DNA of 62,906 nt, filler included, from Folioceros fuciformis (taxonomy: Eukaryota), in the NCBI GenBank assembly GCA_049999805.1. It is 4 parts of 4 records of this genome, joined end to end, with 100 filler letters (N's around TTAATTAATTAA, not from the genome) between each part and the next. Parts side by side here need not be neighbours in the genome. Positions count along the whole stretch, not along the records: positions 21,380 to 52,458 come from JBNGIO010006289.1; 3 more parts are not named here. One strand, given 5' to 3'. Made by a program: the position numbers and the translations under genes. The notes below the pieces were generated by a model. The model had not been told where the DNA came from. It ran no database searches and saw only the letters and a list, made by a program, of their open reading frames with translations. This document shows positions 4,483 to 58,151 of the stretch, piece by piece. Numbering within the stretch: the first letter of the stretch is position 1; each line of letters starts with the position of its first letter.

Positions 4483-5601
4483 GCGCTTAGCAACCGCTCC
4501 TCAAAGCTGTTTAGCTTCGCAGTACGAGGCGGACCATGCCGCAACGAGCCCGTAAGAACCACGACGCAAACCAAACCAAACGAGCTCCAAGTGTCGCTCA
4601 CAAAGAGAAAACCTGTGAAGCACTCAACTCTCCATCTTGTCCAAGACGCGTATCGATCCGCAGCACCCCGCGAATCCCACAGATCTACTTCTTATGCCCG
4701 GACAAAGTCCTTCAGCTTGTCCAGGGTCAGACTAGCATCCAGGAGGAGTGTGCAATTGTTTGCAGCATCGGAACATCGCTCGCAGAGAGCATTCAGGCCC
4801 TCAGCTTTCCCTGTCCTTCAATGCTCTCCAGCGTAGCCGCGACACCGTACAATCCAGCAACACTGTTCATTCTCCTCATGAATTCTAGAGGAGCATGAAC
4901 GCGTGGAGGGAGGCCTGGGGACGGAGGAGTCGAGAAGCACCACATTGTGGCCGTGCCCGCTCACAAGCGGAGTGCTGTCCACCACGTATCGAATGCGCGC
5001 GTGCACTGCCTCCGTGCCCTTTCCTGCCATGCCCCGGCCGCTGCGGTGGAGAATGGAGAAACAGAGGTCGACAACCGTTCTCGGTCCTGAAAGACAGTCG
5101 GTACCTTGAGCGCGACTCCCACGTACCACATTGTCCGACCAAATCGAATACTTATCACTCCCAGTGGGGCCTGGCATCCCACCTACCCTCGTCTGTTCGA
5201 TCCAGCCTCCAGAATATTCTACGCGCGGCACAGCTCATCGTCCTCTTATCTGATCCGTCATGATCTTCAGGAGACGGTGACACACGGTCCACAGCGCTGT
5301 GCCACTGAGGGATGAAGTAAAGTCCTAGCACCAATAAAATATTCTTATTCTTAAATTGATTTTCCTTTTTTATTCCATGGAAAACTTAAAAAGTCAATAT
5401 TCTATACTTTTGGCGCCCTATGCAAGTCAGCCCCCGGTCTTGTAATGAGACAGAAATGTTATACAATGGGGGAGTCGCAGGGAAGAAATTGTATAGAATT
5501 GGACGAGTCGTGTGGAAGAAATATTATAGAATTGGGTGGTGCAAGGAAGCAGGTGATATGTGCTGAAACACTTATATGGTAGGGAATGAAAGTGATAGAA
5601 G

Positions 5602-33436: not shown

Positions 33437-33569
33437 GGCGCTCTCCTTCGAGCTGGCCAAATTAAAAATACGAACACTCGACAGATCTATTGGAAAGACC
33501 TATAACGCTCTAAGTGAAGCTATAAGTAACCAATAGCTAATTAATAAATGAATCACGTATTAAATAAAT

Positions 33570-37335: not shown

Positions 37336-38788
37336 GTTGAGATCAAACCTTCCAATCCCTACTTGCAGTTGCTCACCCCAGCATGTGTAAGAGAGTTACA
37401 CCCACAACGATTGGTAATGTGCACGCAATCTACAGGGCAAGCTATAAGGCAATCTACAAGGGCACTATGCAACGTAGTGTGCATGGACCATTTGCAAGAC
37501 ACTCTGCATGGACCATCTACAAAGTAGTGTGCCAAGACAATCTTCAACCTATTGTGCCCAGTGTGCAAGGACAATATGCAAGTTCTACTCATCTGCAAAG
37601 TAGTGTGTTCGATTAATCTTCAACCTACTATGCCCACTATGCAAGGACAATATGCAAGTTCTACTCACTTTGCAAGGCAACCTGCAAGGCCAATGTAGTC
37701 TAGTGGCACAATATGCTAATGCGAATTGAGGTCCGAGGGTTTCCTACATAATGTGGGGAGAAAAATAACATCAATGAGCTTGTGCACTGAGAAGAAAGAA
37801 AGTTATGGACAAGAAAAGAATGTTCATTATTACTGATCGGTCACAAGGGTGGTAATCACAAAAGAAAAAAAATATTTGTTTTGTAGGGCAATACCAAATG
37901 TGATTAATCCATAGGGTAGCAATCACTAAAAAAAAGAAAGACCGTATTGTAAGGCAATACATAATGTGATTAATCCATAGGGTGACAATTACTGAAAAAA
38001 AGAAAGTATGTATTGTAAGGCAATACATAATGTGAAGCCGTATCATAGGGTAGTACATAATGTAAAGTCCGTATCGTAGGGCAGTACATAATGTGACATG
38101 CAACCCAGATGTTGTAGAATATTTATGTACAATATATGGTTGAGGAAAAAACAAATTAATTATGCATTGAATGTGTGCATGGATATGGAGTCCATATTGG
38201 TATTTCATATATGCCTCATCATTTAAAATGATTTTTTTCTTTAAAAATCCTCGTTCCATCCTTCTTTTACAAGAATTATTTTTCTAAATAAAAAAACTCT
38301 CACTGCAGCTCTTCTTTAATAAAAATTTTTCCTACGTAAAATTCGTCGGTACATCGACTTAGCTGCCCACAGGGAGGCGACCGGTACTCCCAGAGAGTTA
38401 TACGTTTCCTTTCGGTTACTGCTGTTTACTTTGCATCATACCTATCAAGAGTCTTCTACCGAGGACAGACTGTACACTAGGCTATAGCTCGCGTAGGCAC
38501 TAGGTCCTAGACATATGCAAGCATCCGGGAGCATTGCCCCCTTAAGCAAGCATTGGGGCTCCCCTTAAATTTGGGCCAGGTGCTCCACATGCCGTGAAAG
38601 TGAAAGCGTACATCTGCGAACTCATTAAAGTGAAAAGAGATAGTTGAAATGGGCAGCCCATCTCGCACGGTTCCTTGCACTTTCAGGCTACACCCTGGCC
38701 ATCACCCACATCAATGGCACGATAAATAATTTCCTTGGATTCTTCTTGCAGAGCAGGCACAAATGAAAGGCTACCGATGACACAGCAT

Positions 38789-39810
38789 CTAGTCGTCATC
38801 CTCAGAGTCATCCTTGGAGTCACTCTGTCGAACACTCCGCCTCGTTTGGACGGGAGCTTTCTCTTTACTTACGGCCCCGTCCAGGAAAAGATATCCTCCT
38901 CTTGCGAGTCTCTCCTCAAGATCTTCAGTGGTGAAATCGTCCTTGCCACCGAGCTCGTCAAATCCAACCTGTGGGTGCGACCGATTGATCAGACACATTC
39001 AGGCTCTTTCGAGCTGAAGAAGAGCCAGCAACTGACAGGACAAGAGGACTGGAACTTACCACGTAGTCATTGACTTTGGCATCCTTGATGAGGGCCAGGG
39101 TTGGTAGCACAACTATCTTCAACTTCTCTGTAAGGAAGGGACTCTTTTCTGCGTTAATTTTCACAAACAGAGTCTCCATATGCTGCTTGCACAGAATAGT
39201 CAGATGTTTGTCCACAACCTGCAGCATGAGGGTGTTCAGCTATCATCTTCTAATGCAGGCATAGCACCGGACTCCACCCAAAGCACACACAATAAGAACT
39301 TCATATCACGCCGTCGCCAGCAATTCGACTTCCATGGTGAGGGACGAACATCACAAGGAGATTACAAGGTGCTGCTGCGAGAAAATCACCTTGCACGGCC
39401 AGTTTTCCCTAAAAAAGTGGCAAACAACACGTTCGTTCGCCTTCACCTTGACGAAAAACTCCTTCTCGCTCTGCAGTTCCGAGTACTCGCCGTGTCCCTG
39501 GGCAAGCCATTCCTGTCGCTTGGCAGCTAGTTTCTTCATCTGCTGCAATCTCCGCTCCCGCAGCTGCTCGAGGTCGTCCTCATCCAAGCGTTCCAATCTG
39601 TCGATCTGCTCATCTAACTGCTGCTCTATAACCTTAGCTGCAGTCAACACCTGATCCTCCACAACCTGCACGCACAACCTCCGTCCCTCAGATCCTGTTG
39701 CTCCAATCGTGAACACCAACCATCCCACTCCAACGCAGGACAGTGATCCAACTACCCGAGGCAAGCACTGCCACTGCTCTTACCTTCTGGATGACAGCCG
39801 TGCTGGCCAT
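38789..39810 (-). CDS. TXNDC9: Thioredoxin domain-containing protein 9 / phosducin-like PLP3, 213 aa, 4 exons
   Basis: Exons 39810-39784, 39665-39390, 39218-39060 and 38968-38789 encode LRERRLQQMK..GHGEY..VVCHFFRENWPCKVVDKHL..FVKINAEKSPFL..VGFDELGGKDDF. Confidence 0.95.
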
Positions 39811-40469
39811 GCTCGCTCTTTCCGCCACCGCACCCGCACGCGCAGATCTGGATGTGTAAAATTGTGGCAGATCACACGGCCGTAAAGCAACTTATCCGGC
39901 AGCTCCCCTGCAGTCATCTAATCCCATGGCCCTGGCGGCAAGCAGGCAGCAGCTCCATCTCCAGCAAACCGACGAATTGCGAGAATGCGCATGCGCTTCC
40001 CGCCATCTTCCAACCGGCAAACTGTAACCAAGCCAATCCCTAAACTGTTAACAGCTCGGTAAATCGTAAAACACAACTACCACCTTTTTTATTGGACAAC
40101 GGAGATCGCATAGCACGGGAAGTTTGCTTCCAATCCTTCCTTAGTGTGCGACACAATGTCAGCCACCGATGACAACGAATCATCAACTCCTGGTGCAGAC
40201 ATCTGTACTCCTCATTCTGTGGACACAAGGTGTCCGAATGCAGAACGATCCAACAGCTGCGAACGCCCTCTTCCGCAGCGTACTGGTGGCTTGGCCTGCC
40301 GGTCAGAGATTGCTTAGCCTCAGCCGTGGGCGTGGGCTCTCACTTGGGGAGGGCGGTTGTGCATGATTAGAATTGCACCGGGACTGCGGCAGACTGTGAG
40401 TGGCTGCTGGCCAGCAGATAGTGCTGCACCATCATTGGACGGAGGAGTGAGGAATCGGAGCTGGACGCG

Positions 40470-42889
40470 ATGAATTCCGTGGGCTTGTCTTCCTTGTCAC
40501 ACCGAGTCCCTGGGGCCTCGACTTCATCATGCGGTTGCCAAAATGCTGTGGTATCGCGGGCAGTTGCCGCACGGTGTCGGCAGGGCGCAGTCCAAGGAGA
40601 GCGGAACAAATTGGCTGCCGTGTCTAGATGGACAGATTCGTGCTTGCCTTCATACAGGAGAAGGTGTTGGGAAGTTTGGCACGGTACACAAAGGAAGCGG
40701 GAGACCACGATGTCTTTGGTGGCGCCTGATAGCCACAGCATTCTCTACGGCGTGCTTGCAGCCTGCGCAGCCATCGGGCAGGTAACAATTCTGGCCTCTG
40801 CGTTCTTGTGGGCTGCGGTGAAGGACTAATGGTACGGAAGCAAATCAGATTGTGGAGTCGAGGACCAAATGGGGGGCCCGGGTGTCAGCTCCTCTTCTGG
40901 CCATGGGAGTGGGCATGGCGCTTTCTGCAGCTCAAATTTTACCGTCTGCTGCACCAACCTATGAATCGGTGATATGTCTTGCTGAATGGCGAGGATTGTT
41001 GCAGGGTCGAATTGACTCCGGCACGACCCCAGCTGCTGAAATGTTAACATGTGGATTGCTGAGGCTGCAGGTGTTCAGCGCTCTGATGCCCATGGCAGTT
41101 GGCCTGTCGCTTCTGGAAACCGATGTTGCGAGTGCCTTCACTGACGCTGGTGCGATTTTGGTGCAGCGCAATCGTTACTCTGGTTGCCAATGGGTGGAGT
41201 CGGGCCACCTCATGCGTTGACTGAACCATGCTGAACGCAATGCAGGCTCAACGCTGAAAGCCTTTGCGTTTGGGTCTATCGGGACGATCCTAGGGACTAT
41301 TCTGGGCTACTGGTGCATCGGCAGGCAGCTTGGGTCAGATGGATGGAAGGTGTAAGAGAGGCTGTACGTCTTGAGCTGCTCTGCGTTTCAGCAACTTGCC
41401 GACCTGATGGCTTGACCTTGAATGCTCTCCGCTTGTGCTAGATCGCATCGGCCTTGTGTTCAAGCTACGTCGGAGGTAGCATCAACTACGCTGCTACAGC
41501 TCAGGTCAGTGTACTTGAGCTCTACATGTTGCACAGATCTAGTACACCAAGTCTTCATTTCTCTCAATTCATCAACTTGGGTTTGGTGGCGCACTGCAGG
41601 CTTTGGGCTTGACTTCCGGGAGCACCTTAGCAGCTGGAATGGCTGCAGACAATCTTGCTATGGCGGTATATTTTAGCATCATCATGTCAATCCCCGATGA
41701 TAGTGCAAAACGAGCGGAGGGGGTGGAAGCTGCAGGTTGGTACTGACATTCCGGACTGAGCTGAGAGGAAGGTGACTCTTTCTAAAGCTCCTTCGCGTAC
41801 AAAAAACCTGACACGGAGTACCTAGGTGTGGACCTGACCGCCACCAGCATCAGATGCGGCACAGAAAACTGATCCTCAATCGACTGTGGAAACGATCGCT
41901 ATCTCCATAGCTGCAGCTGCATTGGCTTGCACTTTGGGAAGTGCCATTGCGTCAGTCCTTCCTCCTTCATTCGCAGGTCTGAACTCGGCACATGTGGTAG
42001 GCTCTGAGGCATGTAATCATCGCATGGCTTCCTCAACACCTTTCTGCTTGTTCGTTCAGGTTCGGGGCTAGCCATTATGGCAGTAGTCGCGTCGCTCTTC
42101 TCAGCTGGTGGCGCAAGAGTGTGTGGTGTGACGGATGGCGCAAGGGTACCACTGTTTGCTGGCTCGCAAACACTTGGTGGAGCTCTCATGCTTTTCTTCT
42201 TCTCTGTGGTAATTTGTCCTTCACCCCGGTCAACTGTAGACAACTCGCATCACCATGATCCGATCGCGCTCAATCCGGACACTGCCTTCTCAGATCGGAG
42301 CCTCAACGAATCCAATAGAAGCGGTGAGGGGTGGCTGGGCTCTGGTGGTCTTCATTCTTACGATCATGCTGGTAAGCACCGTCTCAGAGTCGCCTCACCT
42401 TCAGCATCTACACCTTTGCCATTGAACTCCAGTCTATCCATTCACTTGTGTGCATGCAGGTGCACTTGGCCATCACCCTCGGTCTTGGACGCTTAGCTCG
42501 CCTTCCTATGCGAACTGTAAGCTACCTTCTTTTTCCCACCAATCAATTGCACGTAGACTAAATGTCGTATTCACTGAACCCTGGATGGTGCACGCGAGCA
42601 GCTTCTGGTCGCTTCTAATGCAAACATAGGAGGCCCCGCCACAGCTGCAGCTATGGCCAATGCCAGGGGCTGGCCCGGACTGGTAAGCCCCCGCCGCCCC
42701 TGGATGCAAGGAGAATTCTGGCCTTGACCTGGAGCAGGCCAGGAAGGATCTAAGGCCTCGCTTCGCTCTGTCTGTTTCTTGTGGCTACCTCAGGTGCGGC
42801 CTGCATTGGTTGTGGGCACGTTTGGCTATACAATTGGCACAATCGTGGGGTGTGTGGTAGGTGTTCGTTTGTTGCAACACATGCTGTGA
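40470..42889 (+). CDS. DUF819 family multi-pass membrane protein (probable plastid transit peptide), multi-exon
   Basis: Exons give ESRTKWGARVSAPLL, AFAFGSIGTILG, GWKIASALCSSYVGGSINYAATAQ, AGMAADNLAMAVYF, ASNANIGGPATAAAMA and GTFGYTIGT; stop TGA at 42887-42889. Confidence 0.9.
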
Positions 42890-44057
42890 GCAACGAGCTA
42901 AAGGGATATGCCCACTAAACATACATCGTGTCCAAACAACGACCCACCAAATGATGCACGCTCAGCAATTTCTTCACACCCTTCACATGTCACCCGGAAC
43001 CCGCTAAACGATGCATGCTGAGTATTCGCTGCACATGTACCCTTCCGCGATGCGGTGCGGTCTCCCAATCTTGCCTGGAAGTCTTCTTCCAACATCTCTG
43101 CTGTTGTGACTTCGCTTCTTCACACCATCCGTTTCGCCCGTGACTTTGGGGACAAGGAGGGCATGAAGGGTCCAACACCAAGGGAATATCCACGGAAGAA
43201 ACCAGGAGAAGGTCTTCCCAGAGAAGGTACAAGCAGCCACCCAGACCCCCGAAATATCTAACAGACCCAAGAAAGATATGAAATGTTGAAGGCACGAGCA
43301 AAGACGGAGAGAGCTTCTGGAAGGTCGACGATGGAAGCAGTGCAGTCTTCAGGAATAAGGGCGGAGTAAGATGTGCTCAGAGGGAGAAGAGAGCTTTCAA
43401 ATGCTGGAGGAAGACAGTAGTGAATGTAGAAGGGGCAAGAGATCATGAACATCGAAGGCAAAGGTGTGTGTGTGTGGTCAAGGGACGGGGGAAGACGAGC
43501 CTGCGTTTGAGAGACCAGCGTGGGTATAAAGGGAAGAGAGGGGAAGAGTGCGACGACAGAGAGAGAGAGTCTGGGCTGGGCTGGGCTCGGCGAGCCGAGC
43601 CGACCCGAGTCTGGCCTCGCGTTGTGTGTAAAATATGCACACACTGGCAGGGCCCGCGGATGGCAGGCTGCAGCCGGGGAAGGCGAACTCTGGCATCAGA
43701 TTGCGCCGGCCTTGCCCACTGCCTGCACGCAGGCTGCAGCTGCGTGCACCCGCGCCCGCACCGGGGGTCTGCACAGCCCTCGCCATGCCGCCATCCCCTG
43801 CTCGCCTCCTGCGTCTGCTGGTCACAGCCCACTCCGCAACGGCAGCAGCCCCCGCTCGGGATTTGGCTGCTCTCAGAGTGGCCGCAGCTTCAGCAGCAGT
43901 CCGCCTGCCTGCCTCGCTCGCTCTGCTCGCTTCCGGAAACATCACCAACGGCTGCCTGCTCTGGTGCCCAACACGCCACCTGCTGCTCCTGTTCTTCTGC
44001 AGGTGGTGGTGGCAGTGGAGCACGCCCGGATGATTCTGCTAGCGTCGCCTTCGCGTA

Positions 44058-47000
44058 ATGATTCCGTCCCCGTCCGTCTTGGCCCATCTCCTGTCAGTGC
44101 TCCTCCTCCTCACAGCCCTGCTGGGTAAGCATTCTCCATCTCCCTTTCGCTGCCTTCGATCCGCGATTTCTCTGCCTTCGGCTAAACGTCTGCTTGCTGA
44201 TCCGCAGACGGCCCTTCCGCCGCTGCCCAGGAATTCCCCACAATTGTGCCGGATTCCAGCTGCATGCGCGACACCATCCAGCCGGGTACTAATATAACCT
44301 ACAGGATACTCCTGCGCAACTGCCTCCCTGCGCTGGATAGCGATCAGGGCTTCCTGCACCTGGACGTCTGGCCTGCCGATGCCGATCCCGATGCCGATGG
44401 TCCCCACGTTGATAAATCTCTGAGATGGGGTTATGGCTCTGGGTCGGAGGTGAAGCTGGATGTCAACATGTCCGGCGGCGGCAACCGAACCTTTCCCTGG
44501 ATCGGTATGTGCATCCGTATGATTACCAATCTCCGTGCGCTATCCACACTGTGTCCATCCAGATGCCTCATTCTGTGTTTGTGTCCACCATTCCAGTCGA
44601 CGGACACTTCCTCCCTATTACCATACCTGTGGAGAAACACAGTGAAGAGCTTAGCTGGTTTGCGAATTTAGCTACAACAGCCAACTCTGCTGATATTGTG
44701 ATCAAAGCTTGGTGCTCTGGTGAGTGCTCTGCTCCACAGTCTGTTTTCCGCGTTTGTTATGCTCCTTGCATTTTGCTTTTGGTTTCATTCAATCGCGTCT
44801 CATGGATAATGCTTTGACCAGACACGCAATCTTGCGTCCAAAACTGTAGTGCCCCAAGTGGACTATGCGTGGGCCCAAGGACCTGCAGATGTTTGAGGGC
44901 CAGTGTGGACACCCCTTGTGCTCCGGGTAAGCGTTGGACTCGCGACGCAAACGCTTCATCTGGTAGTCCATCAGCGGGCAAGCTCGTTTCTTACGTTCCT
45001 GTTTGTCTCCTTTTGCAGCTGTCGAGCCTATACCTCCGTTCCAGAACCCAGAATTGGGAGGCGTCGTGGGTCCCTTACAATTCACGATTGGACCTGGCGT
45101 GTGGAGGTTTTACAGTTTTGAGGTATGATGAGCAACATTCTTCAAGTTGATGGTCCTTGTGTTCGACCACCTTCAGCTACGGTCATTCCATTCGGCGTTG
45201 TCTTGAACTTTTCCTTCTGACGGGATTTGTCATGCTGATGCCAGAAAACGTGTTATACTGAGCCATATATCGATTCCTGTTGTCAGGTGCCTGGTGGTGA
45301 TGGCCGATTTTTGGCAGAGATTTCTCGGGCGTATGGTGATGTGGCGCTCTTTGTAAAGCCTTCAAATCCTGACCTTCCTTTACAGAGCCTGCCTTCAGAG
45401 CCTGACCTAGATGTTTACAGTGACAAGCTCAGCTACCTCAGCAGACTGAGCCATCATCATTTGAACGGAACTGGAGCAGGACGGTTTCATGTTGGGATAT
45501 TGAACAGCAACACTTGCGTACAACAGTCAGCACAAGTTAATCTAACTATATGGGCAGCCCCTCTTTCCAGCGATGTGGCCTTCTGCCCCTTGAACTGTTC
45601 GCATCCTAATGGGCTATGTGTCCAAGGTGGTGTGTGTCAGTGTAAAGATGACTATGGTGGACATTTCTGTGAAAGTAGTAAGTCTCTCTCCAGCAGCAAT
45701 CCAAACACAATGCTTCATTCTAGACTTTGTGATAACTTTTGTAGGCCATGTCTAGCTGACCATGCTTCGAAATCTTCCAATTCTTCGTGCGTGAAACAGG
45801 CGTTCATGCAGTGAAACCGCATCGCAAAGTTGAGGGGACGCTGCATCCAGGCCAGGCAAGTTATCTCAGGCTGGAAGCGTCTGGCCTCAGTGAGAATGAC
45901 AACATCTTTATATCTTTCATCCGAAGCGGAGGATTCCCTGTTCTCGTTGCTCAAGCAAACAGGTTTCCAACTCTTACAGATTATTGTTTGCGTTTCTCCA
46001 CGTCAAACGCCACGGCTGTCACATCTGAGGAGTATGAACTGGACCCTTCAGTGGTTTCTCCAGAGGACTTGATTCTGGGGGTGTTTAATGTAGACTATGC
46101 AGTGCATGAAGACGTAACCTTTGAGATCTTGGTTGGCTTCAATTCAGGTTTCCGGCCAACCCCGTTTTCCTTTTCCTGCACAATGCCTGTCGTTCAAGGA
46201 AAATTGCTTTGGGTTGACATGCTTATGCTTTGCAGTTCGAAGAGCTAGGGCACTGAACACATGGATGATTCTCCTGGTGGCTCTTACGAGTTCTATGTTT
46301 ATATGTCTCTCCATGGGCATCTGCAAGATCTTAATGAATCACAGACGAGATGTTCGTGACATTGTCGAAGTGTCCAACGCCACTCACGCCCTTGCCGAGG
46401 TACTTTGCTCACAAGAAAAAGGCCGCCCTCTTTCAGTTGCAGCATCCCTAGATACACTGCGGTGTGCTTGCAAAGCTAAATGACTTTCATTGTCGCATTT
46501 CCTTCGCAGGGTATGGTTGGTACAGAAGAGTTAGATAAAACAGTGCTGGAAACATTTCCTCTCCTCATCTACAGGGAGGGCATTCTTGGGAAAGAAGAGA
46601 CCCAGTGAGTTGTACAAATGCGTTTTCTTAGAGACCTGTCCCTGCACACTCTCTTGCCCTGGGGTAGGGATTGACACGGAGCTTTACACCACGTGTGCAG
46701 GTGTCCAATATGTCTGAACGACTACGCTCCAGCGGAAGTGCTGTGCGCAGTTCCAGTATGTACACACATCTTCCATGTGCAGTGTATAAAGAAATGGCTA
46801 CGAAGCAACTTCAGCTGCCCTCTCTGCCGGATCTCCTTGCAGCATATAGCTCAATCAATACCGGAGGACTGGAGTAGCGGATCCAGCCTAACGTTTCCAG
46901 AGGGGGCCGATTTGGGGGCAACCCTTGGCCATGTACGGGAGACCCACGTCACCCAGCCTTCAGTCAGGGCCAACGCTGCCTATTCCTGGCTAGAGCCTCT

Positions 47001-47512
47001 CAGTGTAGGCGGTGTGGGATCAGGGCTTGCTGCGCGTACTCGCAGCATAGCCCCACCCGATGTAGCGTCCTCGTCTTCCTCGACCCTCAAGGTCTGCAGG
47101 TACGATTGATACCGGACCCGGTTTCCCTATGTGTAAGGTAGACCACATGAGCTGGTCAATGTTGCATCCCCGTTCATTTGTGTCAGAGCTTTCTTTGTAG
47201 ACTATGACTCGTCCGGAGCTGCCACTTCCAGCGCTTCCCTTCTTGCACCGCCATGGCGCACGGTGCCGGCGCCCGCTCGGCCTGACGGCATGGGATAGCA
47301 GCCCGTCGTTCGAAGCTGGAATGATCCCGGCCCCACCTTGCGAGACGCCAGCATTGAGTGAGATCGAACAGGAATCTGGGAGGGCGAATGTACCGGTGGT
47401 CCTGGATGGAAGTGTCGTCTGCGCAATGGTGTCCAGAGAGCGCAATGAATGTGAGCAAGCTCATCACGATGGCAGCCGCGTTCATCCGCTGCCTTTTTTT
47501 GGCAGCTGGTAA
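44058..47512 (+). CDS. Receptor-like RING-H2 E3 ligase: signal peptide, ectodomain with two EGF-like modules, TM, GLD-like motif, ATL-type RING-H2
   Basis: Phase-consistent GT-AG exons 44058-44124, 44208-44504, 44597-44719, 44822-44926, 45019-45122, 45287-45677, 45800-46147, 46236-46399, 46510-46604 and 46701 onward. It stops at 47109, or splices 47091>47201 and stops at 47512. EGF CPLNCSHPNGLCVQGGVCQCKDDYGGHFCE; RING CPICLNDY..PVCTHIFHVQCIKKWL..SCPLCR. Confidence 0.88.
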
Positions 47513-48799
47513 GGGATCAAAGGACGCCGTGCCAGCCTCCAGGTCAGGCAGGGCCAGGGCCAGGTTCAGGACCCTATAGCAGGAGTCGACTCATGAGAGG
47601 TCGGCATTGCGCTTGTAAGTTGCGGATACTGTAGCAAGCAAGGTGTCCATAATCTTGACTGTATGTACTTCTGCTGTGATTGCATGGAATCGGGATTTGC
47701 GCCAGGCGCCACCGTTGCTCCAGTCTCCAGCCCCGTCCACCATCCTCCACAGCTCCCGTTCAACGTCGACGCGGCGCCCAAACCGTTAGCGGGCCCCAAA
47801 GGTTCTTGCCGAGCCGCCCTTCCACTAAGCTTGTGACACGCAGGATGCAATCTACACGGGCTGCGCAAAAGACCATAAAGTGGCCCCTCCAGTGACATTC
47901 CCTCCTTCACCAGGAACACCATCAGTACGGACCTACGTATCTCTATGCTTCAGGTATGGTTTGTCCAAGAGGGAAGAAGAGGAACTTTTAACACCCTAAA
48001 GATAAGATACCATCACAGGATTGAAATGTAATAATCATTTATACCATAAAATTATATTTGATATTATTCCAAGACACCTTCAATTATTACATTAATTATT
48101 GATACGAGCTGGGCAGACCTTATTCTCCTTGCTATCCAAAGCCACTTGGCTTTCTCCAAGTTGAGCTCAACCTTCATTCTCCTTTCTCTCATGACTTGTG
48201 CACTTTTTGTCAAGTTTCTCAAGGTCTTTATCAAGGCATTTCATAACAAGAGAGTTGGTCTCCCTCTATCTCATTATAGGACTTTGGGGGAGTCCCATGA
48301 TAGGACTTGGAGACCTTCATTCTCCTTTCTCTCCAAGACTCATGCACTTTTCGTTAAGTTTCTCAAGGCCTTTGCTAAGGCATTCCATAACAAGAGCGTA
48401 GGTCTCCCTCCATCTTGTGACTATAGAGTTCATCTATCTCTATTTTGGAACTGCTCTCGCTCAATCTCATATTCTGACCTTCTTTCAACAACAAGTGTCC
48501 ATTTCTCTTAAAAGGGAGCTAACACATGCTATTTACAACGAGTGCAAGGGAGGGGGTGCAGCAACTCTAAAGGTAGATAGACTCTTTCAACTCCCAATTC
48601 ATTGGGCTTACCTTCATTCTCCTTAGTATATTGATAGCAAGGAGAATGAGGGTATGCGCATGAATGCATGTCTCGAGACTCCTTCCTTCTAGAGGCTGTG
48701 GTTTTGGATATATACCCTAAACCCGAAACCAATACCTTCCTCTCGATATATGGATAAGAGGGTATCCCCTTTTACAAGTGTCTATGAGGCAAGCCCTAT

Positions 48800-52558: not shown

Positions 52559-55500
52559 TGTAGGAGAGGAGAGGAGAGAAGAGAGGGTGGTATTGGTGAT
52601 CACAACCATGAAAACAATACACATCACCACTGTCTTACTATGGAGGTCCGAGGTCTCCATTTAAGTAGTACATTTAGGGCTACACAACTTCCAGGTTCAA
52701 TATGGGATAATCTACACTATCCTAAGTTCACTAATAACTAGAACTAGTCTAGTATGATCCCAACTGGGATAACTAACACCACATGAGTTTAGCTCATATA
52801 GAGCTCGATAACTCAACACTCCCCCTCGAGCTCAACATAGCATCTGTACGCCTAACATAGCTCGGAATTTCTTCAGCTTCTCTGCTCCCATTGGCTTAGT
52901 AAATATATCGGCTATATGCTCGTCTGTGTTGACATACACAAGATCAATAGCTCCAGATAAAATCCTTTCGCGAAGAAAATGATAATGTATTTCAATGTGT
53001 TTTGTCCTAGCATGAAACACTGGGTTTCGCGCCAACTGTATGCTGCTAAGATTGTCNNNNNNNNNNNNNNNNNNNNNNNNNNNNNNNNNNNNNNNNNNNN
53101 NNNNNNNNNNNNNNNNNNNNNNNNNNNNNNNNNNNNNNNNNNNNNNNNNNNNNNNNAGAAAATGATAATGTATTTCAATGTGTTTTGTCCTGGCATGAAA
53201 CACTGGGTTTCGTGCCAACTGTATGCTGCTAAGATTGTCACAGTAGATAACAACCTTGTCGTTGACCTGCAATCCAAAATCTCCGAGTAACTTACAAATC
53301 CAAGTCACTTCACACGCTGCCATTGCTGCGCCTCTGTATTCAGCTTTTGTACTAGACAAAGCCACTGTAGGCTGCTTCTTGCTACTCCATGTAATTGCTG
53401 CACTCCCAAGTGAAAAAGTGAATCCACTTGTAGATCTACGATCAGTAACACTGCCTGCCCAATCTGCATCTGTGTATCCACACAGGTTTATTTCTAAATC
53501 TGCAACATAGAAGAGAGCATGATCCATAGTTGCCTTCACATAGCGCAACGTTCGCCTTTCTGCATCCAAATGTGGCTTTCTTGGCGCCTGCATAAACTGA
53601 CTTTGCAATCCCACTGTATAGTTCAAATCTGGTCGGGATAGAGTGAGATATATCAAGCTACCCACAATCTTCCTGTACATTGTTGGATCTTCAAGTGCTT
53701 CACCATCATGAGCACTGAGCTTTAGATTTTGATCCAAAGGAATCGAGATTGGCTTGCACTCAACCATACCATACTTAGTTAGTACATCCGACGCATACTT
53801 CCGTTGTGACAGCCAAATGCCTGTGTTGGTTCGTATAATTTCAATGCCCAAAAAGAACCTCAGTTCACCTAGGTCCGCCATCTTGAACTCTTGTTGTAGA
53901 AGTTCCTTGATCTGCTCCACTTGATCCAACTGATTACCTCCAATGATTAGATCATCCACATAAATGGTCACAAAGACCAGTCGTTTTGTACTTTTGCACA
54001 CATACAACGAATGATCCGCATCTGCCATGTTGAATCCGATGTGAATCAGATGCTGAGCAAGACGCTCATGCCAAGCCCTCGGGGCTTGCTTCAGTCCGTA
54101 CAACGTTTTTTTCAGCTTGCACACATGATTTGGATGATCCAAATCCTCATAACCTGGTGGCTGGTCCATGTATACTTCTTCCAGCAATTCTCCATGTAAA
54201 AATGCATTCTTCACATCCATATGATGTAGGATCCAACCTTTCGATGCCGCTAGTGCGATCACGGTTCGAATTGTTGCCATTTGGGCAGCTGGACTGAACG
54301 TCTCCTCAAAATCTATTCCATATGTCTGGGCATATCCCTTGGCCACAAGCCTTGCCTTGTACCTGTTGATACTACCATCTGCGTTGTGTTTGACCTTGTA
54401 CACCCATTTGCAACCTATTGGTTTCTTGCCTTCAGGTAGTTGTACTAGGTCCCATGTTGCATTCTGATTTAACGCATTCATTTCTTCATCCATAGCATGT
54501 TCCCACTTTGTGTCTCCAATAGCTTCTTCAAAGCTTCTTGGTTCCACATCCTGTACAACCTTTGCCATATAGGCATGGTGCCTAGCTACATAGCTATCAT
54601 AGGTCAACCGCTGTATTGGAACCTTCTGCCTTCCAGATCTCCGTGGGATTGAACCACTTCCAGGGGCTGATTGAACCTCTTTTGCACCAGGTGTTTCGAT
54701 TTTCGGTACACCGAATTCCTCATCCAAGCTCTGCTCAGAGTCGCTTGAATCATCCGCACCTGCACTTAGGTCTGGTATCTTTGAATCCTGGACTTTTTCC
54801 TTCCCTTTGCGAGACACAGCTGTGGAGCTCGTAGGACTCACACTACCTTGCAACCTGCCACTCCATGGATTCTGAACAGTTGTCGAGTTTGATGACGCTT
54901 GCGGTCCACTCAACACTTGTGATTGTTGACCTGCATTGCTTGTTACCTCAGTTTCAAGCACATCAGCTACACTACTTCCTTGTACTTCAAAGTACCAGCT
55001 ACCCATTTCATCAAAGACTACGTCTCTGCTTACTCTCATAGTCCGTGTACTGGGATTGTAACACCTGTATCCTTTCTGTGTAACAGAATACCCAATGAAG
55101 ACACACTTTTCTGCTTTTGGATCAAGCTTAGTCCGCAACTCATCCGGAATATGGACATAAGCAATGCAACCAAATACCTTTAAGTGTGACAAGTCAGGTT
55201 TCTTCCCTGTGAACTTCTCCTCCGGTGTTACACTGTGCACCGCTGCTGTGGGAGTTCTGTTCATGATGTACACTGCTGTGCTTACAGCTTCAGCCCAATA
55301 GTAGTGAGGCATCTTCTTCTCTGTCATCAATGCTCTCGCCACTTCTGCTATGTACCTGTTCTTGCGCTCTGCAACTCCATTTTGTTGTGGCGTATAACGA
55401 CATGAGTACTGCCGTTGAATGCCCTGTTCTGATAAGAATTTGCTGAACTCTCTGGAGAAGTACTCTCCCCCTCCATCAGATCTTATGCATTTGATGTGCC

Positions 55501-58151
55501 TACCTGTCTGCTTCTCAACCATCGCCTTGAAAGTATGAAAATGAGTGATCACTTCACTTTTTTCTTTCATGAAATAGACCCACACCTTCCTTGTGTGGTC
55601 GTCAATGAAGGTCACATAGTACTTGCAACCTCCGATTGATGCAGTCTGTGTAGGACCCCATACATCTGAATGCACAACATCCAACACATATCTGCTGACA
55701 TGTTTGTCATGGGGGAACGCATTCCTAGGCTGTTTCCCAAGTTGACATGCTTCACATATACCTTGCAGTCCATTTTCTGTAAGCTTGGGTATGCCTGTGA
55801 CAACCTTCTGATGCTGCATGGACTTCAACTTCTGCACATTTACATGTCCAATGCGTTTGTGCCACATCTCTAGGTCTGTCACTACCCTTGTACCCTTCGC
55901 AAACATGGCTGACTTCAGCTTAGGAACCTCCACGTTCAAGGTGAACATCCATCCAACCTTTTGTCCTTGAGCAATCAGGCGACCGCCTTTCTTGCACTCT
56001 TCAACAAAGAGTCCTGCAGGTGTAAATCTAACCTGCAGTCCTTGCTCAACCATCTGCCCAACTGACACCAAGTTCTTTGTGATGTTGGGTATGTGAAGAA
56101 CATCTACCAGGCACTTCACTTTGCCATCCTGCATCTTCAGAGGTACAGTTCCTGTATGCACAATTGCATGTGTTGTGTCATCTCCAGTTTCTACATATCC
56201 AAGTTTGTCAAGCACTTGCATTTCTTTGAACCACTCCCCATGGCATGTCATGTGGTTCGAAGCTCCTGAGTCCACATACCACACAATCTCACCATTGTTG
56301 GATCCATTAGCAGACACAGAGTTAAGCATATGCTGCATGACAAACAAGTTTTCTGAGTCATTCTGACTGCTGCTAGAGGCATAATTGTTCTGCTGCCTCC
56401 TGTTGCCTTGATTTCTCCTTGGACAGTCTCTTTCGAAGTGGTCTAACCTACCACAAGTCCAGCAACCACTATTGTCTGCATTTGCATCATTTTGTTGTTG
56501 ATTTCCACGTCCTCTTTGACTCCCCCAGCCTCGAGAATTTTCTCCTCTTCCACGTGTACTCTTGTACTGGGACTCCTGATTCTGTTGTTGATTTTGGTAG
56601 GGATTCCGACCTCTACCACCTCTTTGCCCTCTGCCACCTTGGGCTCTACCTCTGCCTCTGCCAGAGTAGAAGGCTTGCTCAGAGTTTTCCTTAGGCTTGG
56701 AGGATGATTCCTCGCCTAGGTTTTTCTCCTCTATGATCAACATAGAAATCAGGTATGAGAAATTGGGAATGTTTTCCCGAGTCTGTATGGAAGTCTTGAA
56801 CTGCTTGTAGGCAGGTGTTAACCCGCGCAAGCAAACTTCGACCTTGTCATCATCTTCCACACTGACACCAATGGACGCAAGGGATTCCACTATCCCTTTG
56901 ATCTTTAATGCGTACTCATTGATTGATAAGTTCTTCTTCATAACTGTGTTGAAGTCATTCTTCAACTGCAGTTTTCTCACCTTCGTGTTAGTCTCATAGA
57001 GTTTTACCAACTCATCCCATGCTTCTTTGGGCGACTCTGCATCCTGTATGTGCCCAATCATGGTGTCATGAATGCTGATTGACTTCCGAGATCCTTGACT
57101 CCAATCCTTCAGCGCCTTAATCTGCTCCGCTGTTGCATTCCGTTCAAGTACTACAGGGGGTTTTTCATGCTCCCCCTCAATGTAGTCCCAATAACCCTTT
57201 CCCATAAGAAAGTTTGTAAAACGAAACTTCCAGGCATGGAAGTTGTTTTTGTCCAGCTTCTCCTGTACGATCTGGTTAATACTGTCACTGGCCATTCTTG
57301 CCACCACTCAAGGTTGACACTCAATCCTTTCTTGAGTACTCACACTTGATAAATGTCTGAAAGAACCAGACTGCTTCTGACTGGAGTTTTACTCACAAGA
57401 CCTTAAGTCTCTTCTTCCTAAGAGCAATCTGGTGCGGAATCACGCTGCCTTGCGTGAACCAGATTGTCTCATGCTCCGTGTCCTTACAGACTCTTGACTG
57501 TCTGCCCACAAAGCTCCCGTGAGATTTCCTGTCAATTCCTTCCCTGCTGCCAAGCTAGGGTTAGCACACTTTCTTGCAGCTGCTGAGGCTATTGCAGCTG
57601 TTGCCTCCACTTGTCAGCCCTTCCACAGAGCTCTGGGGATCAACAGCTAGTCCAGTAAGCTGACAGGGCCTTGTCGCCCTTCTCCTCACTTCCTGCACAC
57701 ACCGATATGAGAGTTAGCTGCCGGGACACTTGCTGCCGATCTCCCTCCAAGCTGCTCCAACTTCTCGTAGCTGCTCTAGCTTCTGGTGTGCACTCTTGCT
57801 GCCTCTTGCAGCACCTCCTACGCCGATCTTGCACCGCCTGCACCGGGCTCTGATACCATGTCAATAGGATCGACTCCAGTCTACGTGCAAGTGTAGGAGA
57901 GGAGAGGAGAGAAGAGAGGGTGGTATTGGTGATCACAACCATGAAAACAATACACATCACCACTGTCTTACTATGGAGGTCCGAGGTCTCCATTTAAGTA
58001 GTACATTTAGGGCTACACAACTTCCAGGTTCAATATGGGATAATCTACACTATCCTAAGTTCACTAATAACTAGAACTAGTCTAGTATGAACCCAACTGG
58101 GATAACTAACACCACATGAGTTTAGCTCATATAGAGCTCGATAACTCAACA
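52559..58151 (-). mobile_element. Near-intact, recent Ty1/copia LTR retrotransposon
   Basis: LTRs at 57859-58151 (TG...CA) and 52559-52818 (edge lost in gap). PBS TGGTATCAGAGC at 57858-57847 and PPT at 52827-52819. Confidence 0.97.
52832..57295 (-). CDS. Copia Gag-Pol polyprotein (Gag-CCHC, PR, IN, RT, RH)
   Basis: Single ORF with CWTCGRLDHFERDC, WYVDSGASNHM, WHKRIGH..CEAC, SDGGGEY, QNGVAERKNR, YVDDL and ADIFTK. The N-gap with duplicated flanks at 53057-53155 is likely an artefact. Confidence 0.93.
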   Translation of the reverse strand: MASDSINQIVQEKLDKNNFHAWKFRFTNFLMGKGYWDYIEGEHEKPPVVLERNATAEQIKALKDWSQGSRKSISIHDTMIGHIQDAESPKEAWDELVKLYETNTKVRKLQLKNDFNTVMKKNLSINEYALKIKGIVESLASIGVSVEDDDKVEVCLRGLTPAYKQFKTSIQTRENIPNFSYLISMLIIEEKNLGEESSSKPKENSEQAFYSGRGRGRAQGGRGQRGGRGRNPYQNQQQNQESQYKSTRGRGENSRGWGSQRGRGNQQQNDANADNSGCWTCGRLDHFERDCPRRNQGNRRQQNNYASSSSQNDSENLFVMQHMLNSVSANGSNNGEIVWYVDSGASNHMTCHGEWFKEMQVLDKLGYVETGDDTTHAIVHTGTVPLKMQDGKVKCLVDVLHIPNITKNLVSVGQMVEQGLQVRFTPAGLFVEECKKGGRLIAQGQKVGWMFTLNVEVPKLKSAMFAKGTRVVTDLEMWHKRIGHVNVQKLKSMQHQKVVTGIPKLTENGLQGICEACQLGKQPRNAFPHDKHVSRYVLDVVHSDVWGPTQTASIGGCKYYVTFIDDHTRKVWVYFMKEKSEVITHFHTFKAMVEKQTGRHIKCIRSDGGGEYFSREFSKFLSEQGIQRQYSCRYTPQQNGVAERKNRYIAEVARALMTEKKMPHYYWAEAVSTAVYIMNRTPTAAVHSVTPEEKFTGKKPDLSHLKVFGCIAYVHIPDELRTKLDPKAEKCVFIGYSVTQKGYRCYNPSTRTMRVSRDVVFDEMGSWYFEVQGSSVADVLETEVTSNAGQQSQVLSGPQASSNSTTVQNPWSGRLQGSVSPTSSTAVSRKGKEKVQDSKIPDLSAGADDSSDSEQSLDEEFGVPKIETPGAKEVQSAPGSGSIPRRSGRQKVPIQRLTYDSYVARHHAYMAKVVQDVEPRSFEEAIGDTKWEHAMDEEMNALNQNATWDLVQLPEGKKPIGCKWVYKVKHNADGSINRYKARLVAKGYAQTYGIDFEETFSPAAQMATIRTVIALAASKGWILHHMDVKNAFLHGELLEEVYMDQPPGYEDLDHPNHVCKLKKTLYGLKQAPRAWHERLAQHLIHIGFNMADADHSLYVCKSTKRLVFVTIYVDDLIIGGNQLDQVEQIKELLQQEFKMADLGELRFFLGIEIIRTNTGIWLSQRKYASDVLTKYGMVECKPISIPLDQNLKLSAHDGEALEDPTMYRKIVGSLIYLTLSRPDLNYTVGLQSQFMQAPRKPHLDAERRTLRYVKATMDHALFYVADLEINLCGYTDADWAGSVTDRRSTSGFTFSLGSAAITWSSKKQPTVALSSTKAEYRGAAMAACEVTWICKLLGDFGLQVNDKVVIYCDNLSSIQLARNPVFHARTKHIEIHYHFXXXXXXXXXXXXXXXXXXXXXXXXXXXXXXXXXXDNLSSIQLARNPVFHARTKHIEIHYHFLRERILSGAIDLVYVNTDEHIADIFTKPMGAEKLKKFRAMLGVQMLC

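Follow-up and report, generated by a model that had tools for sequence, protein, structure and literature searches.

A transcribed Folioceros fuciformis gene that probably encodes a membrane RING-H2 ubiquitin ligase with an EGF-like and jelly-roll ectodomain, and its conserved family in streptophyte algae and bryophytes

Plants code for hundreds of membrane-bound RING ligases, and their choice of substrate is mostly obscure. The ATLs are the largest group among them and have been described as proteins with almost no extracellular part. A locus in the genome of Folioceros fuciformis (assembly GCA_049999805.1) raises the question of whether an ATL-type RING-H2 is joined, in one membrane protein, to a large folded ectodomain, and what such a protein might do. 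The window, i.e. the whole stretch of DNA that was analyzed, has 62,906 nucleotides (filler included), of which positions 21,380 to 52,458 come from JBNGIO010006289.1. The original prediction placed there, at 44058-47512, a gene for a receptor-like protein with a signal peptide, an EGF/beta-rich ectodomain, one transmembrane (TM) helix, a GLD-like motif and an ATL-type RING-H2. This architecture proved to be correct and is supported by a transcript. Our favored reading, which we consider fairly probable, is that this expressed gene encodes a single-pass membrane RING-H2 E3 of type I topology whose cytosolic cassette is of ATL type.

When the exon chain was rebuilt from the sequence, ten exons between 44058 and 47109 (+ strand) were found to encode 700 amino acids in one uninterrupted frame. 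All nine introns have GT..AG boundaries, and an in-frame TAG (44040-44042) lies a short way upstream of the ATG at 44058. The intron phases are, in order, 1,1,1,1,0,1,1,0,2, which bears out the claim that six of the first seven introns are in phase 1 (binomial chance 0.0013 under an assumed background rate of 1/4 phase-1 introns). The features are as follows.

43600-44057, + strand: 5' leader; record 6 of run X3 spans 43600-44123 and extends about 71 nt further upstream
44058-44124, + strand: exon 1, start codon and predicted signal peptide (aa 1-22); Kyte-Doolittle hydropathy exceeds 1.6 in windows at aa 1-11; the splice is confirmed
44208-44504 and 44597-44719, + strand: exons 2 and 3, predicted beta-rich module A (aa 23-162), which aligns with module A of the family
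44822-44926, + strand: exon 4 (phase 1-1), EGF-like module 1 with six Cys at 44833-44919 (aa 167-195)
45019-45122 and 45287-45677, + strand: exons 5 and 6; aa 198 to about 330 form putative jelly-roll module B, and aa 332-360 (45584-45670) the second EGF-like module
45800-46147, + strand: exon 7 (phase 1-1), putative jelly-roll module C (aa 363-478), from phmmer, an AF2 model and fold matches
46236-46399, + strand: exon 8, single TM helix (46262-46324; about aa 488-508), where hydropathy is highest at aa 490 (2.25), plus a basic juxtamembrane stretch
46510-46604, + strand: exon 9, GLD-like motif ELDKTVLETFP (46528-46560; aa 540-550), aligned with GL[ED]/GMD/GVD...[FY]P of the family
46701-47109, + strand: coding part of exon 10, RING-H2 (46702-46827; aa 566-607), an unconserved tail and the stop codon TGA (47107-47109)
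47110-47600, + strand: 3' UTR on the same X3 contig that carries exon 10; it includes the open frame (47201-47512) on which the earlier end coordinate was based

Contigs from public runs were compared with 43600-47900. Runs X1 and X2 are DNA, and their contigs are unspliced over this entire region. Run X3 is taken to be RNA, by guess and by its spliced contig. One X3 contig of 3123 nt omits precisely the nine predicted introns and is otherwise identical; it thus reproduces the proposed phase-consistent chain and joins all ten exons, confirming that the ectodomain exons and the RING exon belong to a single gene. The locus is a real, transcribed gene. The transcript support is one contig from one run with a guessed RNA label, and because the contigs come from one sample they do not give transcript ends, strand or expression level.

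The leader has four upstream ATGs (43635, 43660, 43785 and 44030) and upstream ORFs of 132, 132 and 82 codons. With its four upstream ATGs, this long leader may point to inefficient translation or to a 5' end that is imprecisely placed. The gene end had been set about 400 bases too far, at 47512. The X3 contig is continuous and unspliced from 46701 to about 47600, so the frame terminates at the TGA at 47107-47109. Two ways of extending the 3' end were considered and rejected: a splice from 47099 to 47201 is out of phase, and the contig is unspliced there; an acceptor at 47187 would be in phase on paper, and the X3 contig has no splice at that point. Further downstream, a joint from 47597 to 47704 may be part of this mRNA. 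A tblastn search with the spliced product gave no match in the window besides the gene itself, and no Pfam family was found in the neighboring ORFs (37771-43695 and 47566-48511).

The order of the parts in the protein is signal peptide, beta module A, EGF-like module 1, module B, EGF-like module 2, module C, TM helix, GLD-like motif and RING-H2, and every motif that had been quoted was found in the rebuilt product. The ectodomain of about 461 residues (aa 23-483) contains 8 N-x-S/T sites and 17 Cys. In the model of a homologue, a helix (residues 456-486) occupies the TM position. Basic residues lie on either side of the TM helix, so the topology depends on the signal peptide. A type I topology with the ectodomain outside is suggested by this signal peptide, by the 8 N-x-S/T sites and 17 Cys, and by the need of a RING for a cytosolic E2.

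The description of the ectodomain as EGF/beta-rich agrees with the structure check, in which profile searches and AF2/Foldseek gave two EGF modules between beta modules. The EGF-like spacing C-x3-C-x6-C-x5-C-x-C-x8-C occurs twice (aa 167-195 and 332-360). Pfam EGF models give only weak matches in the window product, none reaching its cut-off (exon 6: EGF_Tenascin 15.2 bits versus a cut-off of 25, EGF_TEN 16.5 versus 65). The equivalent of EGF module 1 in the relative P0010 passes EGF_Teneurin (25.8 versus 24.3), and the family profile matches the EGF region of reelin (3a7q, E 6.9e-10).

For the beta modules, models are the main source. Module C of the window protein itself was modeled with AF2 (pLDDT 85). 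It matches PPC (5sv5; Foldseek E 1.7e-5, TM 0.65/0.70), and its structural neighbors are SIDT2 (Z 11.7), the collagen-binding domain (CBD) of ColG (Z 11.1) and PPC (Z 10.5). In the homologue model, module B superposes on the ColG collagen-binding domain (Z 11.1, rmsd 2.8, 99 residues aligned) and on PPC 5sv5 (Z 10.9), and the module A region (residues 6-134) is all-beta. Modules B and C are accordingly modeled as PPC/collagen-binding-domain-like jelly rolls, B from the homologue. At the sequence level, PPC (PF04151) is absent from the exon translations at E <= 1 (Pfam), the window modules being below the PPC threshold; no beta module of the window protein reaches any Pfam threshold, and a phmmer search of PDB sequences with exons 6 and 7 gave nothing meaningful. 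Modules A, B and C have no significant pairwise similarity in blastp (best E 0.04), so that a common fold rests on the models and, for module A, on an all-beta prediction only. The family profile aligns in hhalign with P0076, a protist PPC-EGF string with three PPC and four teneurin-EGF stretches in Pfam (probability 99.2%, E 8e-20, 292 columns). The module C model and this alignment together point to a PPC/collagen-binding fold with remote homology to PPC. The fold matches of the beta modules (Z about 11) come with only 10-18% identity and are to a very common sandwich, and a fold in common is no proof of function.

The cytosolic cassette is more readily assigned. The RING-H2 is recognized by Pfam zf-RING_2 (1e-12, 48.6 bits versus a cut-off of 27.3) and has all eight zinc ligands. 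Its spacing, C-x2-C-x15-C-x-H-x2-H-x2-C-x10-C-x2-C (42 residues, including PVCTHIFH), which we take to be the canonical ATL spacing, is identical in 16 of the 18 family sequences, the window protein included. Also present are a Leu after ligand 2, a Phe before ligand 5, a Trp four residues after ligand 6 and a Pro after ligand 7 (CPICL, IFH, CIKKW and CPLC, respectively). Among solved RING-H2 domains, the family profile matches RLIM (7e-20), Arabidopsis RMR1 (2.4e-19) and rice EL5 (2e-17); it also matches ZNRF3 over TM and RING (ZNRF3 residues 221-343; 4.4e-16). In the homologue model, the GLD-plus-RING segment has the RMR1 RING-H2 as its nearest structure (Z 13.1, rmsd 1.1, 72 residues aligned, 36% identity), and it superposes as well on the RINGs of RNF12, RNF13 and RNF38 that were solved with E2. 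Upstream of the RING, ELDKTVLETFPLLIY (aa 540-554) fits the position of the GLD motif, with E rather than G as first residue; a GLD pattern search matched 9 of the 18 family sequences and failed in the other 9. The intact RING suggests ubiquitin-ligase activity.

According to a 24-genome survey of ATLs (PMC3161093), these proteins have either nothing or several tens of residues ahead of the TM helix, and no further Pfam domain was found, in agreement with the earlier statement that typical ATLs have little ectodomain. The survey also describes the ATL RING-H2 as 42 residues with conserved Leu, Phe, Trp and Pro beside the ligands, and the GLD motif as 12-16 residues between TM helix and RING. 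Against this description, the window protein resembles ATLs in having a TM helix, then a GLD-type motif and then a 42-residue RING-H2 in which the non-ligand residues conserved in ATLs recur; it also has the Pro two residues before the third ligand. It differs in that the TM helix of ATLs is N-terminal and without another domain, whereas here the helix (about aa 488-508) follows a signal peptide and a folded ectodomain of about 460 residues. The motif reads E-L-D versus G-L-D in ATLs. After ligand 6, at the place of the ATL pattern [I/V]D-x-WL, the window protein has I-K-K-W-L and several relatives VDKWL or IDEWF; before ligand 3, at the place of R-x-LP, it has C-A-V-P and several relatives LRVIP, LRRIP or LRKLP.

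A phmmer search of 1.84 billion representatives with exon 7 gave 24 matches at E <= 1e-3. Full-length relatives with the same architecture come from Chlorokybus, Closterium, Marchantia, Riccia, Physcomitrium, Ceratodon and Sphagnum, and gene models and transcript assemblies made independently in at least nine named species have an ectodomain and a RING in one protein. In alignments with eight relatives, the spliced product shows 25-35% identity over 490-670 columns. Two relatives have no RING: the model of P0010 (Spirogloea) stops after the TM helix, and P0016 (Ostreobium) is a 263-aa piece consisting solely of module C, TM helix and a GLD-like stretch. A word-index search of longer proteins with exon 6 had given no match, though relatives exist; the full scan later found them, so this null result is a failure of sensitivity and not absence. 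The word-index search with a nine-sequence family alignment, in which at least 3 proteins scored among 8000 candidates, is not a census either. The searches, non-exhaustive for vascular plants, named no vascular-plant member, the matches being to algae, mosses and liverworts only. It had been stated that the protein is not recognized from angiosperm models. That stands insofar as only algae, mosses and liverworts were named, but the gene is not a one-off: judged by these alignments, it belongs to a conserved, unstudied family of streptophyte algae and bryophytes. Named members include Mp1g22670 from Marchantia polymorpha and XP_024385263 from Physcomitrium patens, and the relatives are named by their sources as "hypothetical", "uncharacterized" or "unnamed", or by a bare domain label. 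The literature check found no mention of Mp1g22670, Mapoly0118s0020, MARPO_0118s0020, LOC112286974, R1flu_021775 or KC19_7G093100 and, by topic, no paper describing such an architecture, as judged on titles and abstract openings. Members may be counted as ATLs in the supplementary Physcomitrella lists of PMC3161093, which lie outside this check.

The protein shares its layout with the PA-TM-RING proteins (RMR1, RNF13, GRAIL/RNF128) and with ZNRF3/RNF43: signal peptide, extracytosolic domain, a single TM helix and a cytosolic RING-H2. The original prediction had drawn an analogy to RNF43/ZNRF3. The layout supports it, but the ectodomain is not PA-like; it consists of three jelly-roll or beta modules that alternate with two EGF modules of teneurin/reelin type. 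A PA domain was found neither in nine exon translations (Pfam E <= 1) nor in 16 relatives (E <= 0.01), nor among the best 25 of 36 families for A1; of the beta modules, B and C were the ones searched individually. RMR1 and RNF13 come up as RING neighbors only. With PPC/CBD and EGF modules in place of PA, the analogy is limited to layout, and the window protein is an analog in design of these proteins, not a member or relative.

Other systems resemble the ectodomain. Reelin also alternates jelly-roll modules with single EGF modules (subrepeat A, EGF, subrepeat B), and reelin repeats 5-6 (5b4x) are the top Foldseek match of the whole homologue model (E 5.7e-10). For this homologue (not the window protein), TM-scores are about 0.2 and the rmsd exceeds 20 A over 577 columns, so that the packing differs and only module order and kind are alike. 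No sequence match to reelin was found outside the EGF modules, and reelin, in contrast, is a secreted animal protein with neither TM helix nor RING. The homology to P0076 extends in the profile across EGF1, B, EGF2 and C, and the language-model neighbors include GBD_Tenm3/EGF_Teneurin clusters (0.95 and 0.93) and a PPC cluster (0.78-0.81); unlike the window protein, this PPC-EGF string (P0076) has no RING in Pfam. In the animal MEGF8-MGRN1 system, an EGF-rich single-pass membrane protein coupled to a RING ligase reportedly controls a cell-surface receptor (10.1101/2020.05.25.113944); that system divides receptor-like part and RING between two proteins, whereas here they are one chain.

We propose that the ectodomain probably serves to pick out a ligand or a membrane substrate, since PPC/CBD and EGF modules have binding roles in other proteins and ZNRF3/RNF43 offer an analogy. 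Because of the signal peptide, about 460 residues would face either the cell exterior or the secretory-pathway lumen, and the stop-transfer helix would keep the GLD-like motif and the RING-H2 in the cytosol. The binding partner of the ectodomain could then be a ligand, a glycan of the wall or matrix, or the corresponding part of a second membrane protein, and the RING, having recruited a ubiquitin-charged E2, would ubiquitinate the cytosolic part of the bound neighbor or the ligase itself. Endocytosis and degradation of the ubiquitinated target would follow. This would be the logic of ZNRF3/RNF43 and of PA-TM-RING proteins, built from different extracellular parts.

Instead of sensing ligands at the cell surface, as originally suggested, the same chain could serve inside the cell. 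As an endomembrane sorting or quality-control ligase, it would have its ectodomain on the luminal side of the ER, Golgi, TGN or vacuole, where it would bind soluble or membrane cargo, with the RING marking cargo receptors or the ligase itself for the vacuole; a luminal cargo-binding role has been proposed for the plant RMR proteins (PA-TM-RING). We regard this as possible, though on the unlikely side. RMR1 is the nearest solved RING (profile E 2.4e-19; homologue Z 13.1), the fold neighbors of B and C include the GOLD domains of p24 cargo receptors (Z 9-10.4), and no feature of the sequence separates the plasma membrane from internal membranes. The GOLD matches rank lower, however, than those to PPC/CBD, Pfam finds no PA domain, and PPC/CBD-EGF strings such as P0076 resemble surface or secreted proteins. 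Judged against the published ATL description, three features (GLD-like motif, Pro-x-Cys and spacing of the RING) are of ATL type rather than RMR type.

It is doubtful that the protein mainly serves adhesion or wall anchoring, its jelly-roll/EGF string binding wall or matrix and its RING acting only in its own turnover by autoubiquitination. Collagen-binding domains and a porphyran-binding CBM (8xmz; module C Z 8.0, Foldseek E 1.7e-3) among the neighbors would fit such a role, and reelin and the teneurin/tenascin-type EGF proteins are matrix or adhesion proteins; yet conservation within the family is highest in the cytosolic cassette (RING spacing 16/18), which argues for a selected catalytic role. 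That the gene model is an artefact, either a pseudogene or a merger of an adjacent secreted EGF gene with a small ATL, is very improbable. The upstream ATGs of the leader and the two relatives without a RING (P0010, P0016) could be read that way, but the ten exons lie on one contig with a 700-codon frame open, and ectodomain and RING occur in one protein from at least nine named species with independent models.

Taking the protein to be a receptor-type ligase, we tentatively suggest an origin for the cassette, as one possibility that may well prove wrong. TM helix, GLD motif and RING-H2 would have been the output of a PPC/EGF receptor in a streptophyte (perhaps all-green-plant) ancestor. The cassette would later have radiated into the short seed-plant ATLs, and the receptor form would have been kept in streptophyte algae, bryophytes and the lineage of the window and lost in seed plants. 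Its members would be ligand- or wall-gated E3s that clear specific membrane proteins and that arose independently of ZNRF3/RNF43. Through its large folded ectodomain, a conserved form of this kind would directly link extracellular recognition to ubiquitination in the green lineage, and it would also bear on the origin of the ATL cassette. The members in Marchantia polymorpha and Physcomitrium patens lend themselves readily to knock-out and tagging, so that such a link is testable now. If it is truly absent from seed plants, it would be a clean case of the loss of a surface-signaling module in land-plant evolution.

The gene under study was rebuilt independently from the sequence 43500-48200 and its three-frame translation. 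It comprises ten exons within 44058-47109 (+ strand), all introns are GT..AG, and the joined exons form a single open frame of 700 codons. An in-frame TAG (44040-44042) precedes the ATG at 44058. The intron phases are, in order, 1,1,1,1,0,1,1,0,2. Six of the first seven are thus of phase 1, just as predicted (probability 0.0013 for at least six of seven, with an assumed background of 25% phase 1). Module edges coincide exactly with phase-1 boundaries, which enclose EGF module 1 (exon 4), beta-rich module B with EGF module 2 (exons 5 and 6) and beta-rich module C (exon 7). Public sequencing runs were aligned to 43600-47900, and the stretch is present in three of eight. In the DNA runs (X1 and X2) the contigs are unspliced and colinear with the genomic sequence. 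The third run, X3, carries a presumed RNA label; its 3123-nt contig omits precisely the nine predicted introns, with zero other differences, and the loss of nine GT..AG introns is hard to explain unless X3 is RNA. The phase-consistent ten-exon chain of the original prediction is thereby matched at every intron in one public run. Its end at 47512, however, falls in the 3' UTR: the same contig is unspliced from 46701 to about 47600, so that the frame ends at the TGA at 47107-47109. A splice into 47201 was ruled out, being out of phase.

The transcript leader (43635-44057) contains four upstream ATGs, at 43635, 43660, 43785 and 44030. Three open ORFs of 132, 132 and 82 codons; the ORF of the fourth extends past the main start in another frame. 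Translational control is one possible meaning, an imprecise 5' end of the contig another. In a second X3 contig (depth 9.2, short side only 27 nt), position 47597 is followed directly by 47704; the 106 nt left out have GT..AG ends. Either the 3' UTR extends further and has an intron here, or a plus-strand transcript begins here, downstream of the gene.

The window is nuclear DNA of a plant. The gene occurs in it only once, and the neighbouring ORFs gave no Pfam match. Other features are:
5599-8184, +, LRR receptor kinase ORF, intronless, 861 codons (LRRNT_2, LRRs, Pkinase 1.3e-47)
13367-14461, +, integrase fragment of another LTR element
29420-33499, minus, DNA polymerase phi ORF, intronless, 1359 codons (PF04931, 1.6e-143)
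52832-57307, minus, copia retrotransposon with an uninterrupted gag-pol frame of 1491 codons
60766-61764, +, second copia fragment

The predicted signal peptide, single TM helix, GLD-like motif and RING-H2 were all located in the 700-aa product, and the ectodomain is close to the roughly 450 residues expected:
aa 1-22, hydrophobic N-terminus
about 461 residues, ectodomain with 8 N-x-S/T sites and 17 cysteines
about aa 488-508, single hydrophobic helix
aa 540-550, ELDKTVLETFP (GLD-type)
aa 566-607, RING-H2
about 90 residues, C-terminal tail, no alignment with relatives

Pfam confirms the RING (zf-RING_2, 1e-12, 48.6 bits versus a cut-off of 27.3). Both Cys-rich EGF-like modules were borne out by an exact six-cysteine spacing (C-x3-C-x6-C-x5-C-x-C-x8-C), although their Pfam matches are sub-threshold (Teneurin, Tenascin and Mua-3 EGF; E 0.007-0.02). 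The beta-rich parts matched no Pfam family.

Module C of the window's protein was modelled from a 25-row alignment and is predicted to be an all-beta sandwich (pLDDT 85, pTM 0.79). Its top Foldseek match is the pre-peptidase C-terminal (PPC) domain of a Bacillus collagenase (5sv5, E 1.7e-5, TM 0.65/0.70), followed by the ColG collagen-binding domain. A Foldseek-independent search returned the SIDT2 and SIDT1 ectodomain sandwiches (Z 11.7 and 11.2), the ColG domain (Z 11.1, rmsd 2.2, 94 aligned) and PPC (Z 10.5). The whole-protein model is that of the nearest homologue (P0035, 593 aa, 35% identical). It has three beta modules, two small EGF parts, a 31-residue helix and a RING (pLDDT 79.8), and its module B matches the ColG domain (Z 11.1) and PPC (Z 10.9) by VIA-align. 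Its best Foldseek matches are reelin repeat fragments (5b4x, E 5.7e-10; 3a7q; 2e26), with TM-scores of only about 0.2 and an rmsd above 20 A. The likeness lies in the alternation of jelly rolls and EGF parts, not in their packing. The family profile matches the reelin EGF region (E 6.9e-10). By hhalign it aligns with P0076, a protein of protist type in which Pfam recognises three PPC and four teneurin-EGF stretches (99.2% probability, E 8e-20, 292 columns). Neighbours in a language-model atlas are GBD_Tenm3/EGF_Teneurin and PPC clusters. The predicted ectodomain folds agree with the sequence evidence.

For the cytosolic side, a 24-genome survey of plant ATL ligases (PMC3161093) supplies the definition: the RING-H2 spans 42 residues and its ligands are spaced in a fixed way, Trp follows ligand 6, the TM helix is situated towards the N-terminus, and a GLD motif of 12-16 residues lies between helix and RING. 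In addition, Leu follows ligand 2, Phe precedes ligand 5 and Pro follows ligand 7, and the survey notes the motifs [I/V]D-x-WL and R-x-LP. The 42-residue spacing is found in 16 of 18 family sequences, including that from the window (the exceptions are P0018, shorter by one residue, and the RING-less P0010). Leu, Phe, Trp and Pro are all in place in the window's RING, as is Pro-x-Cys before ligand 3, and the GLD-type motif starts with E-L-D; [I/V]D-x-WL and R-x-LP are degenerate here and present in relatives. The GLD-plus-RING part of P0035 superimposes on the RING-H2 crystal structure of Arabidopsis RMR1 (Z 13.1, rmsd 1.1, 72 aligned, 36% identity) and also matches RINGs solved with E2~Ub. The inner side is thus ATL-like, but the N-terminal side, with its predicted folded ectodomain, is a mismatch. 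Typical ATLs do have little ectodomain, as originally stated: region I, as described in that survey, is absent or some tens of residues, with no other Pfam domain. The protein as predicted therefore lies outside the ATL definition on its outer side.

A word-index search with exon 6 found no relatives. With exon 7 (module C, 115 aa), phmmer found 24 proteins at E <= 1e-3, seven of them at E <= 1e-10, among 1.84 billion cluster representatives. Long relatives have module C in an equivalent position and a C-terminal RING-H2 by Pfam. The spliced product aligns with eight of them over 490-670 columns (25-35% identity), and the order of parts is constant throughout the family alignment. Many short matches are single exons called on metagenome contigs. 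Members, all named "hypothetical", "uncharacterized", "unnamed" or by a bare domain label, are:
Chlorokybus atmophyticus
Spirogloea muscicola, gene model stops after the TM helix
Closterium
Marchantia paleacea and M. polymorpha (Mp1g22670 / MARPO_0118s0020)
Riccia fluitans
Physcomitrium patens (XP_024385263)
Ceratodon purpureus, two loci
Sphagnum, three species
Ostreobium quekettii, a chlorophyte, 263-aa fragment

In a maximum-likelihood tree of 17 sequences, the window's protein falls inside a land-plant clade (100/100) on a long branch; the moss clade (98/97) and that of Marchantia and Riccia (100/100) both exclude it. No vascular plant is among the named matches; the exhaustive scan used module C only, as a single sequence and not a profile. 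That no angiosperm counterpart had been recognised fits this result, which is suggestive, not conclusive, of absence from vascular plants.

The Spirogloea and Ostreobium sequences (P0010, P0016) end after the TM helix or GLD-like stretch, without a RING; truncated gene models may be the reason, or such receptor-like forms lacking a RING may exist naturally. Two Closterium entries (P0022/P0037, 1327 and 1554 aa) combine a PI3/PI4-kinase gene model with a module-C-like stretch (1136-1236, E 4.6e-4); this may be a genuine fusion, or two genes may have been merged in the model. In P0012 (3142 aa; NCBI/ENA record, 2.88-Mb contig), which has HYR, dockerin and carboxypeptidase-regulatory domains and looks like a prokaryotic surface protein, 10 separate stretches match module C (E 7.5e-8). 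Long arrays are therefore another setting in which this subtype of PPC-like module is found.

The observed architecture has transcript support and is conserved. Its RING-H2 is intact and belongs to a type of which many complexes with E2 have been solved, and the ectodomain modules, as modelled, are folds of binding domains. Signal peptide and stop-transfer helix would give type I topology and leave the RING on the cytosolic side, where it would recruit an E2. The ectodomain would choose the ubiquitination target: a bound ligand may alter the state of the ligase, or the ectodomain may hold that of a neighbouring membrane protein. Endocytosis and degradation would be the usual outcome. Had the ectodomain and RING exons belonged to separate genes, the architecture would be a gene-fusion artefact; this is contradicted by the single X3 contig that spans both and by independent gene models in many species.

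The main rival to such a cell-surface ligase is a protein that acts in the lumen, in sorting or quality control, as has been suggested for the plant RMR ligases; wall anchoring with self-turnover is a weaker one. ZNRF3/RNF43 and the PA-TM-RING ligases have the same overall design, and the family profile aligns with ZNRF3 from the TM helix through the RING, but their extracellular parts are unlike those found here. The proposed analogy to RNF43/ZNRF3 therefore holds for the design and does not extend to membership.

RING-H2 ligases that cross the membrane once and carry an extracytosolic domain are already known. Among the papers listed by searches of 8.1 million PMC papers and 0.36 million preprints, none describes an ATL cassette joined to PPC-like jelly rolls and EGF modules; supplementary tables may count moss members of the family as ATLs. 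The main interest lies in the phylogenetic spread, from Chlorokybus to bryophytes and the Folioceros genome, and the family is directly testable in Marchantia and Physcomitrium.
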